Source of the DNA: an uncultured Alphaproteobacteria bacterium
Lineage (GTDB): Bacteria > Pseudomonadota > Alphaproteobacteria > Rs-D84
Length of the DNA stretch: 64,000 bases
Assembly: GCA_944389265.1 (NCBI GenBank)
Contig: CALXLS010000001.1
Coordinates: 151,419-215,418 of the forward strand
Direction: 5' to 3'
Below the pieces are notes generated by a model. That model was not told the DNA's origin. It did not search any database and saw nothing but the letters and a program-made list of their open reading frames with translations. Shown here one piece after another: positions 49,880-54,200 of the stretch. Each line of letters begins with the position of its first letter. Position 1 is the first letter of the stretch. The translations under genes and the position numbers were made by a program.

Positions 49880-50482
49880 CTAGGCTTGTTTTCTTAAACC
49901 TGTTTCACGGTCAACCCAAACCTCTTCATCTGCAATTTCCATCATTGGCATATCTGATTTGCTATCTGAATAAGAACGAACAACGTGCGGTATTATTTTA
50001 TTTTCTTTTGCCCATTCATCCATTGCATAAACTTTGTTTTGCCCCCAACATAAAAACTCATGTTTCCATGGTTTCTTTGAATCCATTTTAGAACACAATA
50101 TAGCATCAAATTTCATATCCTTTGCTAATGGCACAACCAAAAATTCTGGACTGGCAGAAATTAAAATAACCTTTCTTCCTGATTTACGTTCATTTTCTAC
50201 TTGCTCTTTTGACCAACCAAAACGCTCACGTTTGTGCTGTTTGATAAATGCAGGTGCAAATTCTTTTACCATTTTCGGTGTAATAAAACGTCTTATATTC
50301 CTACGCCACCACATACCAGAAGGATTTAACCAACAGGATATGTATGCAACACCCATAAGAGGCAAAAACAACCATGGTCTTATTGAATGTTTAAAACAAT
50401 ATTTACCGAATTCTACATTAGAATCTTTGGCAGACAATGTACCATCAAAATCAAAAACGACAACGTCTTCTTTTTTTAACAT
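49880..50482 (-). CDS. HAD-IB family phosphatase
   Basis: FDFDGTL, ISAS, K and YSDSKSD motifs. Confidence 0.85.
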   Translation of the reverse strand: MLKKEDVVVFDFDGTLSAKDSNVEFGKYCFKHSIRPWLFLPLMGVAYISCWLNPSGMWWRRNIRRFITPKMVKEFAPAFIKQHKRERFGWSKEQVENERKSGRKVILISASPEFLVVPLAKDMKFDAILCSKMDSKKPWKHEFLCWGQNKVYAMDEWAKENKIIPHVVRSYSDSKSDMPMMEIADEEVWVDRETGLRKQA

Positions 50483-50529
50483 GTAACTAATCCTTTTATA
50501 ATTTCCGTTGCATTATAACAACCTTTTCC

Positions 50530-50558
50530 TTGCACCGCAATTTTTATATTGTTATGAT
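50530..50558 (+). promoter_or_regulatory. Sigma70-type promoter for the structured leader and the 50778 gene
   Basis: TTGCAC-N17-TATGAT with an extended -10 TG. Confidence 0.65.
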
Positions 50559-50564
50559 AACTTT

Positions 50565-50777
50565 GTTATCAGGTATTCTGATAATGGGGTTTAGCGACCC
50601 GACTTAGACGTATGCAACACAACGTTATGTGATGCGATTTTTTGTATCTCCAACCTCTGGTTGGAGGGTGTGGGAATATATTGAATACCACCGCTATTTC
50701 TAAGATAGTCGCTAACCTCCAACCACCTGATTTTCTGGTGGTTTTTTCATTCATCATGAACGAAAAAGGAGGTTGGA
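50565..50777 (+). ncRNA. Structured leader resembling C4/CI antisense RNA plus upstream target sites and terminator
   Basis: Outer stem 50659-50667/50716-50724 encloses two hairpins; its loop and single-stranded sequences are complementary to upstream sites 50591-50598 and 50603-50608; overlapping terminator at 50721-50747. Confidence 0.6.
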
Positions 50778-51251
50778 ATGAAAAAACTTTTTACTGTACT
50801 TGTGCTTTATAATATTATGTACATCCAATATGCACCTGCTGCACCAAACTGTTGCCCACCATGTTCACTTGAAATAGGCGCAACCAACAATTATGACAGT
50901 AGTTGCACAAATTCAAACATTTGTAATTGCCGTTCAACATCTACTACAAACTCTACCTCGCATGTTATAACTACGACAAACAAATTTTTCTCGACCAAAT
51001 GTATAGGGAATACTGCTTATGCATCTTGCACTTCTTCGCTACCAACATACTCTTGCGAACAAGGATATTATGGTAGACCAACAAGCAGTTTATCAGGTTG
51101 TACACGTTGTCCTTCTTCTGGTGGAGTTTACGGGACGACCGCATCTTCTGGCGCCACCGATATAACAGAATGTTATATTCCTTCTGGAACCAGCGGTTCG
51201 GATTCATCTGGCTCTTTTACTTATACGGGCAACTGTTATTATACAAATTAA
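50778..51251 (+). CDS. Secreted Cys-rich protein (13 Cys) with an ephrin-receptor-like/GCC2-GCC3-like C-terminal motif
   Basis: AAGGAGG RBS, signal-peptide-like N-terminus, CEQGYYG...GCTRCP...T..SGATDITEC; terminator at 51251-51277. Confidence 0.75.
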   Translation: MKKLFTVLVLYNIMYIQYAPAAPNCCPPCSLEIGATNNYDSSCTNSNICNCRSTSTTNSTSHVITTTNKFFSTKCIGNTAYASCTSSLPTYSCEQGYYGRPTSSLSGCTRCPSSGGVYGTTASSGATDITECYIPSGTSGSDSSGSFTYTGNCYYTN

Positions 51252-51275
51252 AAAACGGGGGCACGCCCCGTTTTT

Positions 51276-54200
51276 TTATTTCTTGCGCTTAAAGAATGTG
51301 CGCCCTCTTTCTACAAGGAAGAACAATGCTGGCGTTAAGGTAAATGTCCACACTAAACTTGCGAACATACCACCTATCATAACCGCTGCCATTGCGACTT
51401 TCATACCGTCGGCACTCCATAATTGAGGTATCATACCTGTCATAACCGCAATAGAAGTCATCAATATCATGGACTTTTTATCTTTCAATTCTGCCCATAA
51501 TGCTTCTTTTACATTTTCACCGTTATTTATGCGATTGATAGTTGGTTCCAAAAGCAAAATGTTATTATTTACCACAAGCCCCACTAACATAACAAACGCT
51601 AACATAGCACCAACATTCATGGACGCACCTGACAAGAACAGTAAAACAAATACCCCTGCAAAACTTGTCAAAATAGAAGTCGCAATTGTAAATGGATGTG
51701 CCAACGAGTTCATTATAGCAGCCAACAACATATAAGTCAGAACAATAGCCAAGAAGAACGCACTGCCGATTTCACCAGTTGTTTCATCTTGTATTTCTGA
51801 CATACCACCAAATTCTGCACCGTAACCAGTTTCCCAATCAACTTTTGCTATTGATGCTTCTATTTTCTTTTGGACAGGTCCCATCGTGGACTTACCGATA
51901 TTTATATCGATTTCTGTTATTCTTTCTTTATCCAAACGACGTATATCTGGTGTCGCACGTACAACCTCTATGCTGCCTAATTCAGACAAAGGCACCATAC
52001 CTTTCTGGGAATTTACATAAACACTATCAAACATCGCAGATGTTTTAAAAGGACGTGCAAACTCTAATACTATCGGGTATTCTTCACCCTTTTCTTTATA
52101 CTTATAATCATCATTTCCATACAACGCGGTACGAAGCGTAGAACCTGCGTATGAATTCTTTATCCCCCAGAAATTCATTTTTTCTTCGTCTGGTATAAAA
52201 CGAGTCTCCAACCCTGGTTCCTGCTGTGCAAACACAGCACTTTGTACTTCAGGTATTTGATTTATCATATCTAATACCTGTTTCGCGTATGCTTCTCGCT
52301 TTGCATCATCTTCACCAAATATATTCAGTACGATATCAGAAGATATACCCGCACCAGACATACTTTGACCTGCACGCGCCTGAATCTCTACATCAGGTAT
52401 TTCTGATAATTTCGGTACCATTTCACGAACAAGTTCTTTGTCAGAACGCTTTCTATCTTCTATATCAACTAACTCTACCTTTACAGAAATATTCTGTAAT
52501 CCACGTTCACCAATTTTTACAGAAGTTGACTTTACTTCTTCAAATTCTGACAACTTATCTTCTATCTGTTTTGCTATTGCCTCAGACTTTTCAAAAGTTG
52601 CGCCCATAGGTGCACGCGCAGTTATATTAATCTCGTTCGTATCTGTAGATGGCGCAAATTCATTACCAACAAAACGCATCAACATTGAAGAACCTAATAA
52701 AACCGCAATCGCAATTGCAATCACGCGCCAAGGTTTTGAATACTGAAAATCAAACCATTTACGCAAATTAGACTTTTCTTCATCTTTCTTTGTTGTCTTT
52801 ACAGATTGAACACTCTTTTCTGTTTTCTGTTTCTTATTCTCTGTTAGTCTCAAGAACTTTGCTATCATCATAGGTGTTAATGTAAATGAGAACAATAATG
52901 ATAATAAAGTTAAGTACACAACAGTTAACCCAAACTGAATCATAAATTGCCCAACAATACCCCCCATAAATGCCAATGGCAAGAACACAACAACATTAGT
53001 TCCGACACCCGCTAAAACAGATACCGCAACTTTCTTTGTTCCGTCAATAGCCGCATTTTCTGGGTCTTTACCAGCACGCATTTCTTGCAATGCAGATTCT
53101 ATCAAAATAATAGCATTTGATACCAATGTACCCAGCGCAGAAGAATACGCTAATAATGTCATCGCATTAATTGTAAAGCCACTACCATCCATAAAGAAGA
53201 ACCCAGCAATTAATGACGCAGGAATAACAACACCTGCAATAACTGTTGAACGCCAATTACGAGTAAAAGCAAGCAATACCAAAACTGTGAATATAACACC
53301 TAAAATAATACCGTATATTGTGCTATTTGTTTCATCAGCAACCGCAATGGAAGAATCAGATATAATCTCCATCTGGGCACCTGGGAAACGAGTTTCTAAA
53401 TCTGCTTGCAATTCTGGCAGTTTCTTGCGCAACGCTTCGGATATTTTTATAGCATTTCCGTCAGAAGCTTTTACAACAGACGCTATAACAACTCTTTCAC
53501 CGTTATAACGCGCACCTGTTTCTATGTCTCTTGCTGCATCAACTACAGTTGCAATATCACTTAATTTAAAGTTCTGACCTTCGGCAGTTGTTAAACGTAA
53601 ATTCGCAATTTCTTCAACGTTCTGAAATTCACCAATAAAACGAACATTTGATGAATCTGTACCAGTTTCAATCTTACCACCTGGTACATTTAAGTTATGC
53701 ATACCTAAAGCAGATACTACATCCATAACTGTCACACCACGCGCGGCCATTGATTCTGGATTCATCTCTACACGTACTGCGCGCGTTTCACCACCAAATA
53801 CTGATACACTGGCAACGCCCTTTATCGCGGTAATTTTATTAGACAATGTATTATCTACATATTCTTCTATATCACGCGGATTACCACCACGCAAAACTAC
53901 ATCCACAACAGATTCTTGCAAAGGATTCAGTTTTTCTACAACAGGCTGTTTCAAATCATCTGGGAATTCAGAAGACAACGCGTCAAGTTTAGATTTTATT
54001 TCTGTAGATTTATCGTTTACATTTACCCCCAGATTAAACTCCGCCATAACGAAAGCACCATTTTCAAATGCTTGCGAAGTTATTTTCTTTAACTCAGAAA
54101 CTTCTGATATTGCATCTTCCGCTTTCTTTACAACCTGCGATTCTATTTCTGCAGGTGATGCGCCTGGATAAACGAATGTCGCTGTCACCATAGGAAAATC

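Follow-up and report, generated by a model that had tools for sequence, protein, structure and literature searches.

How is the gene for a small cysteine-rich protein controlled when its message opens with an RNA built like the immunity modules of phages? The question is raised by one locus in the window, the 64,000-nucleotide (nt) stretch of contig CALXLS010000001.1 analysed here, which comes from an uncultured alphaproteobacterium of the order Rs-D84. On its forward strand a promoter is followed by a long structured leader and then by a gene, at 50778–51251, for a 157-amino-acid protein with 13 cysteines. Candidatus Enterousia, to which the organism is assigned, is described in the accessible portion of PMC12306168 as uncultured gut Alphaproteobacteria that have genomes below about 1 Mb and presumably depend on a partner. 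An earlier examination of the letters of this DNA, hereafter the sequence-only reading, had likened the leader to the C4 RNA of phages. The answer favoured here, with a probability of roughly 0.55, is that the leader may be a phage-type module of the seqA-CI kind (phage P4) or the a1b1-C4 kind (P1 and P7), reused as a default-off leader switch with a trans-acting short RNA; the case is built on sequence comparison.

The leader belongs to a large family, whose copies were collected by BLAST, by scanning for motifs and with R1, a covariance model built from 10 copies (179 positions and 36 pairs). With R1, 17 copies are detected at E<=1.7e-5 in the 935-kb genome, and there are at least 19 once two more divergent copies, of a form called type 2, are counted. 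The same model finds the family in all of the 24 other genomes of the genus, with 1–47 copies each, and in 9/16 genomes that represent other families of Rs-D84; more widely in the class, 11 of 149 sampled genomes of other alphaproteobacterial families have full-length matches. Similar leaders in this and related genomes, with covariation between loops and targets, had been proposed as a check on the sequence-only reading, and both were found. No earlier description of the family turned up in the literature, most subscription journals lying outside the coverage.

Architecture of the leader

In the window copy the promoter (50530–50558) consists of a -35 element TTGCAC at 50530–50535, a 17-nt spacer and a -10 element TATGAT at 50553–50558. 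The RNA starts with P0, a 5'-terminal hairpin of 7 base pairs (bp) at 50566–50584, whose loop reads GUAUU where the family consensus is GUGUU. A second hairpin (50587–50600), with a GGG/CCC stem, displays in its loop the first address, a1 (TTAGCGAC, 50591–50598), and is followed by a second, single-stranded address, b1 (CTTAGA, 50603–50608). The partners of both lie some 100 nt further on, in a domain at 50659–50724 that has the topology of P1 C4. Its outer stem is formed by strands B (GGTTGGAGG, 50659–50667) and C (CCTCCAACC, 50716–50724), and encloses two hairpins: H1 (50670–50691), with the conserved loop GAAUAUAUUGAAUA, and H2 (CTAT-TTCTAAG-ATAG, 50694–50708), whose loop carries b' (TCTAAG, 50699–50704), the complement of b1. 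The complement of a1, a' (GTCGCTAA, 50708–50715), is single-stranded.

Three further elements complete the layout. Strand A (CTCCAACC, 50648–50655) lies just upstream of the domain and is the partner of B in an anti-antiterminator hairpin, A:B. An intrinsic terminator, AACCACC/GGUGGUU followed by U6 (50721–50747), has its AACC in common with strand C. The initiation region (50768–50780) comprises the Shine–Dalgarno (SD) sequence GGAGGTTGGA at 50768–50777, with the core GGAGG, the spacer and the ATG at 50778; it can pair with the CCUCC of C and, in some members of the family, with a' as well. The motifs listed by the sequence-only reading all lie where it had placed them. That reading had also noticed a hairpin with a U-run at about 50613–50643. 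Both are present here as hairpin Px (50609–50637) and the adjoining U-run (together 50609–50644), in the position of the isrK-type terminator hairpin of P1; the U-run, however, is particular to the window copy, most other copies having an A-rich linker instead.

The leader, analysed as 231 nt, folds at -76.1 kcal/mol, as compared with -52.4 +/- 4.2 kcal/mol for 200 shuffled sequences (z -5.6), none of which is as stable. Its minimum-energy fold contains a1:a', b1:b', the A:B hairpin and the terminator together. A simple promoter and terminator scanner reported neither the TTGCAC/TATGAT promoter nor the AACCACC/GGTGGTT terminator of the leader.

Addresses particular to each copy

The two upstream sites had been read as complements of two later segments of the same RNA, and the comparison of copies bears this out. 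In 12/12 copies first compared the pairs are perfect complements, a1:a' over 6–8 nt and b1:b' over 5–10 nt, at a constant register and with differing letters. Because paralogues keep this pairing in the same register with different letters, it is more than chance. Left out of the address counts were L049:1578-1744 (an antisense artefact), L093:1752-1911 (degenerate) and L062 (a misaligned type-2 copy); L100 was also omitted, here and from the tests of the downstream site. The longest Watson–Crick run averages 7.2 nt between cognate partners and 3.3 nt between non-cognate ones for the a address, and 6.4 nt versus 3.2 nt for the b address (permutation p<5e-5 in each case). The cognate partner is the best or tied for best in 44/45 rows for a1:a' and in 41/45 for b1:b'.

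Taken together, the two addresses single out nearly every copy. Both match in 15/15 canonical cognates of the window genome, as against 2/210 non-cognate ordered pairs, and those two stem from one tandem pair. In a second genome (G013), where 17 of its 47 copies were compared, both match in 16/17 cognate and 4/272 non-cognate pairs. Copies with a common a address differ in b. The sequence-only reading had suggested cross-talk among paralogous leaders; the differing addresses exclude it for the most part, leaving only tandem copies, which do share addresses. Three tandem pairs conserve their address columns better than they do the remainder of the RNA (Fisher p 1.6e-4, 5.5e-3 and 2e-2).

Competing stems around a terminator

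The stems that the sequence-only reading had set in competition, A:B, B:C and the terminator, all covary in an alignment of 49 copies, which was compared with 500 shuffles. In this alignment 95% of the helix cells hold standard pairs, versus 72% in the shuffles, and the covariation score is 0.65 versus 0.20, a value that 0/500 shuffles reach; when helix partners are slid, pairing falls below 50%. P0 is 98% paired, with 7/7 pairs changed on both sides, the a1 hairpin stem is 96.5% paired and covarying, and all 7/7 pairs of a1:a' covary. A:B is 96% paired, with 6/8 pairs changed on both sides and many G-U pairs. The outer stem B:C (97%), H1 (85%) and H2 (97%) all have compensatory changes, and in the terminator (97% paired) 6/7 pairs covary, including an exchange of A-U for G-C at the R of RCC. 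The single pair that is exclusive to B:C, and has no place in A:B, is GC in 34 copies, UA in 9 and AU in 2. Because both stems covary, this B:C-only pair included, A:B and B:C both exist, and they are mutually exclusive.

The state with A:B and the terminator is the more stable one, and the helices are conserved, covarying alternatives. When the 3' half is folded alone (L100 and L061 omitted), A:B plus the terminator is the minimum-energy structure in 36/44 copies, and forcing B:C costs on average 4.3 kcal/mol. When B:C forms, the terminator loses 4 of its 7 pairs. The arrangement is that of an attenuator: an intrinsic terminator shares bases with an alternative helix, B:C, which is in turn opposed by a third strand, A. 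Long unpaired stretches are also conserved among the copies. As for other devices, a leader peptide and an internal promoter were considered and dropped, neither being conserved across the copies as judged by eye.

These data also bear on the idea that the element is a repeat at the level of DNA (a miniature mobile element, for instance, or a site of recombination), devoid of any RNA function. It is multi-copy, assembly contigs break at its conserved C/terminator part, and a relative exists that lacks the whole promoter-to-terminator unit. A repeat of this sort would nevertheless leave unexplained the compensatory changes in every helix, the G-U pairs, which fit the RNA strand only, and the fixed orientation and distance to promoter, SD and ATG; it is highly improbable.

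Probable kinship with phage and plasmid immunity RNAs

The closest likeness is with the immI leader of P1, which was compared by way of its annotation and the Rfam alignments of AF234172 (clan CL00128). The same parts follow one another in the same order. In both RNAs the promoter and a 7-bp hairpin come first; a1 follows, exposed in the loop of a short hairpin, and then a single-stranded b1 and a further hairpin. The outer stem of each surrounds H1 and H2; the H2 loop carries b', and a' lies unpaired 3' of H2. GGU opens the outer stem and CCACC stands after it in each, at similar distances from the start. Among the copies B begins with GGU or GGC, and ACC or GCC comes after C. Processing of C4 takes place at GGW (PMC5320573), by RNase P, and leaves a CCA-like 3' end.

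The a1 hairpin of P1 has 4 bp, and the isrK model matches the terminator-like hairpin of its a1b1 region. There are differences too. The outer stem measures 9 bp in the leader and 17 in P1. Unlike P1, the leader has a long conserved loop in H1, an additional strand (A) competing for B, and an intrinsic terminator that overlaps the stem. In P1 both a2 and b2 lie downstream of C4, whereas in the leader an a2-like site is found in the SD–ATG spacer and no b2 was found. Finally, the leader is chromosomal and precedes genes for secreted proteins, whereas the P1 module precedes icd/ant.

Phage P4 offers a second parallel, set beside the leader by description. In the accessible parts of PMC4825925 and PMC3632133, its CI RNA is cut from its own leader, pairs with sites up- and downstream and controls premature termination. 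In the leader, a1/b1 is the counterpart of seqA, and the SD together with its a2-like site a loose counterpart of seqC; as against P4, the site downstream is a partial one and cellular genes are regulated. The same sources, so far as accessible, treat IsrK and C4 as structural homologues of P4 seqA and CI. IsrK (STnc1160), from Salmonella Gifsy-1, is presented in the portion available of PMC4825925 as a leader RNA with its own terminator and with short and read-through forms, the long form being kept inactive by a helix between its 5' part and a downstream segment, and being acted on in trans by the short one. The short form of the leader described here, in contrast to that of IsrK, would carry both partners.

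The one Rfam family whose model gives matches, all of them below threshold, is sRNA-Xcc1 (RF02221; sRNA, small RNA). On the B to C domain of four copies its model scores 42.5, 37.7, 37.2 and 30.9 bits, the gathering score being 53, with per-genome E values of 1.4e-6 to 2.4e-5 for the best three; most copies, the window copy among them, have no match. Like the leader, sRNA-Xcc1 has a 9-bp outer stem, an H1 with an AUA-AAUA loop, an H2, a single-stranded stretch and RCC; unlike the leader family, its description includes neither an a1b1 domain nor a role as a leader. It is reported (Chen 2011) to reside on integrons and transposons. In Xylella, several sRNA-Xcc1 copies per genome occur beside matches to C4 and isrK, according to the accessible part of PMC12189769.

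The four type-2 copies of the window genome (C2:188230-188424(-), C2:192540-192755(+), C2:249671-249862(-) and C1:63589-63819(+)) score lowest with R1 and highest with sRNA-Xcc1. Their leaders have a G+C-richer outer stem, of the GGUCGGGGAG type, and a branched H1.

Judged from these comparisons, the leader RNA probably descends from a seqA-CI (P4) or a1b1-C4 (P1/P7) immunity module. The sequence-only reading is thus supported as regards architecture. The family forms a very abundant branch, or a look-alike, of this kind that fronts envelope and secreted-protein genes.

Genes behind the leaders

In 18 copies surveyed, a -10-like box lies just 5' of P0 in each, often behind the terminator of the preceding gene (judged by eye over the 60 nt upstream). 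The leader terminator is followed, 9–36 nt on, by the SD and the start codon, the start codon itself lying about 20–36 nt from the terminator. Because no promoter of its own is visible between terminator and start codon, the downstream gene would be made only by read-through. The next feature is an open reading frame (ORF) of 124–316 amino acids with a hydrophobic N-terminus (by eye) and 9–30 cysteines in 12/18 copies; in one copy each it is a tandem copy, a 63-amino-acid ORF resembling a helix-turn-helix (HTH) protein, a glycosyltransferase-like ORF and a 466-amino-acid secreted protein. Two to three orphan copies have no ORF call behind them.

The protein encoded at 50778–51251 has a hydrophobic N-terminus, its signal peptide being judged by eye, and 12 paralogues in the genome; a leader copy stands directly upstream of 10 of these 13 genes. 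These proteins share a C-terminal module ending in CYY(S/T)(N/E). A second, unrelated family of small cysteine-rich secreted proteins is also found behind a leader (C4:20977, C6:54338 and C2:67192). The window protein belongs to no Pfam family, and none was found for ten tested downstream proteins save for one chance-level match; a weak protein-atlas hit to Ephrin_rec_like (0.78) is a lead only. The copy at C4:33406-33797 adjoins the end of a tRNA gene, and the 63-amino-acid ORF behind it resembles by eye a small HTH of the XRE type, with no Pfam match. Around the window copy lie fmt, def, rmuC, a gene for a HAD hydrolase and acrB, and there is no phage gene near, as the sequence-only reading had remarked.

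In other alphaproteobacterial families (L124–L127) the leader stands, by eye, before genes for a porin-like protein, a lipoprotein, a 462-amino-acid pilin-like protein with 26 cysteines and a family-2-like glycosyltransferase. Because full-length relatives precede envelope genes in these families, the envelope link is older than the genus.

This linkage has to be set against the possibility that the copies are free-standing, trans-acting genes for c4-like sRNAs aimed at phages or unlinked messages, their place before secreted-protein genes being incidental. Each copy does have its own promoter and terminator, the orphan copies would suit such a role, and multi-copy chromosomal C4-like sRNAs are known: the accessible part of PMC5320573 describes in Acinetobacter baumannii a large chromosomal family, Group 1, with variable a' and apparent processing at GGW. 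Group 1 fits the Rfam C4 motif and is described as sRNAs, whereas the leader family fails the C4 model, is alphaproteobacterial, keeps the upstream a1/b1 domain and is tied to envelope genes. The position of a copy directly upstream of most of the cysteine-rich paralogues, the lack of room for a separate promoter at the downstream genes, and the persistence of the envelope linkage in distant families all make independent sRNA genes improbable, as does the fit between a' with its anti-SD extension and the initiation region of the very same gene.

A possible downstream site at the initiation region

That fit was measured for the strand made of a' and the adjoining CCUCC. Against its own SD and spacer this strand pairs at -9.2 kcal/mol, as compared with -7.7 kcal/mol against non-cognates (p 5e-5); a strength of -10 kcal/mol or better is reached by 18/36 cognates and by 19% of the non-cognates. 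The preference for the own initiation region persists when each distinct a' is counted once. Alone, a' pairs weakly with its own 24-nt initiation region (p 0.008 for Watson–Crick runs and 0.10 when G-U pairs are included). The complementarity to the SD of the gene that the sequence-only reading had pointed out is thus supported, and extended, for about half of the copies.

Weighing the proposed reuse of a module

A number of observations weigh against a reused immunity module, and the first group concerns the downstream site. An a2-like site lies beside the SD in only about half of the copies, so that the claim of complementarity to the SD stands for part of the family. The counterpart b2 could not be located: comparison of b' with the initiation region, with everything between the terminator and +45, and with the first 60 nt of the coding sequence yields no cognate signal (p 0.35-0.89). 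A GRGG:CCUC extension of a1:a' is compatible with the copies and shows no compensatory change. The alignment used for covariation was itself fitted to the model structure, which favours that structure.

The second group concerns the Rfam models. At gathering thresholds only four tRNAs are reported in the window, and a permissive search returns only chance-level matches at the leader region (MicF and snoRNAs among them). No Rfam family reaches its gathering score on the leader copies, and no riboswitch matches. The C4 and c4-a1b1 models, with which the sequence-only reading was to be checked, failed at threshold. C4 (RF01695, gathering 45 bits) has no match at E<=10 on 50400–50900 or on 12 copies; its best match in the genome, 15.4 bits with E 1.7, is at an unrelated place, whereas P1 itself scores 68.8 bits. 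The best match of c4-a1b1 (RF03163, gathering 46.7 bits) has 10.8 bits and E 2.8, and sits just upstream of a copy resembling sRNA-Xcc1, C2:249671-249762. For isrK (RF01394, gathering 50 bits) the best score, 23.2 bits, belongs to unrelated terminators, and 13/14 control genomes have matches as well.

The remaining points bear on the addresses and on the cell. One a address is common to 5/17 copies in G013. A fourth tandem group, of three copies, has no common addresses. Variation in the address helices does not exceed that in the P0 stem, so address diversity alone is no proof of a role in trans: ordinary intramolecular helices that drift neutrally could show it too. Contigs from two RNA-labelled runs (of 21 runs) cover only the conserved 50704–50752 or flanks. 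Hfq was not found in the genome, which is 97.8% complete.

The recurrent a address is UCGAAAC / GUUUCGA, present in those five G013 copies and in several genomes. Because it recurs among copies, specificity would lie mainly on the b address.

Many of these points would suit an explanation that is purely cis-acting, in which the leader is an attenuator, either a riboswitch or the target of an RNA-binding protein. The balance between A:B and B:C would be tipped by a ligand or protein bound at the invariant loops (GUGUU of P0 and GAAUAUAUUGAAUAA of H1), the addresses would be ordinary tertiary or long-range helices of one folded leader, and the resemblance to c4 would stem from convergence or be a distant relic, with neither processing nor action in trans. 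The overlap of terminator and antiterminator, the covariation of all helices, the conserved long unpaired stretches, the modest variation of the address helices and the failure of the C4-clan models are what such a device would give, and the envelope-gene linkage in several alphaproteobacterial families resembles a regulon under a common signal. Two results speak against it: in 3/4 tandem groups the addresses have stayed identical between copies whose other helices differ, an identity that an intramolecular helix does not need, and orphan copies exist that have no gene behind them. Furthermore, a match to P1 immI in nine parts, along with the matches to sRNA-Xcc1, is hard to reach by convergence. 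A device acting in cis only is possible, if rather unlikely.

A proposed switch

If the reused module is taken as the working model, a structured leader of about 180 nt, with its own promoter and intrinsic terminator, would leave the gene to be expressed by read-through. The strand a'-CCUCC-AACC has several rival partners: a1, B, the 3' strand of the terminator, and the SD and spacer of its own gene, with A competing for B. The default state would be off, whether by termination or by masking of the SD after read-through. A switch to B:C would let the polymerase pass, hide the anti-SD and free the SD. The short RNA would end at the terminator, and RNase P might cleave it at the GGU with which B begins; by analogy with CI, C4 and IsrK, it may act on nascent transcripts of the same address, silencing or activating them. 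RNase P RNA and Rho are present in the genome.

A bolder version of this model is doubtful: each surface-protein gene would bear a private, RNA-only switch of the immunity type, the short RNA acting in trans only on transcripts with the same two-part address, and each of the 10–47 loci would hold a heritable on or off state. If true, this would amount to phase or antigenic variation of the cell surface that is address-coded and independent of changes in DNA.

Phages and plasmids use RNA modules of the C4/CI type as immunity devices, and in Acinetobacter such modules occur as orphan sRNAs. What is new is that the whole two-domain module serves, throughout a bacterial order, as the usual leader of genes for envelope and secreted proteins, in up to 47 copies per 1-Mb genome, nearly all of which differ in their two-part address. 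Should it work as proposed, the family would constitute a natural set of orthogonal RNA switches and a route of surface control or variation for host-dependent bacteria with very few protein regulators. Because no Rfam model detects the family at its curated threshold, current annotation misses it.

Further features of the unit

The transcription unit of the window copy is closed by a bidirectional terminator at 51250–51276 (either strand), recognized by a terminator scan. In a related strain the whole unit of promoter, leader, gene and terminator is missing: 50529 is joined to 51272, with 50 other letters between. The contig of this strain comes from an RNA-labelled run and differs from the window by 12 mismatches in 98 nt. 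Because a related strain lacks the entire unit, the stretch from promoter to terminator behaves as an insertion/deletion cassette.

A last observation concerns two conserved loops of the leader. In the window copy the P0 loop GGTATTC (50572–50578) is a perfect 7-nt complement of GAATACC (50683–50689) in the conserved H1 loop. About four to five of these seven pairs are retained in other copies, as judged by eye, and the complementarity could represent a third long-range contact.

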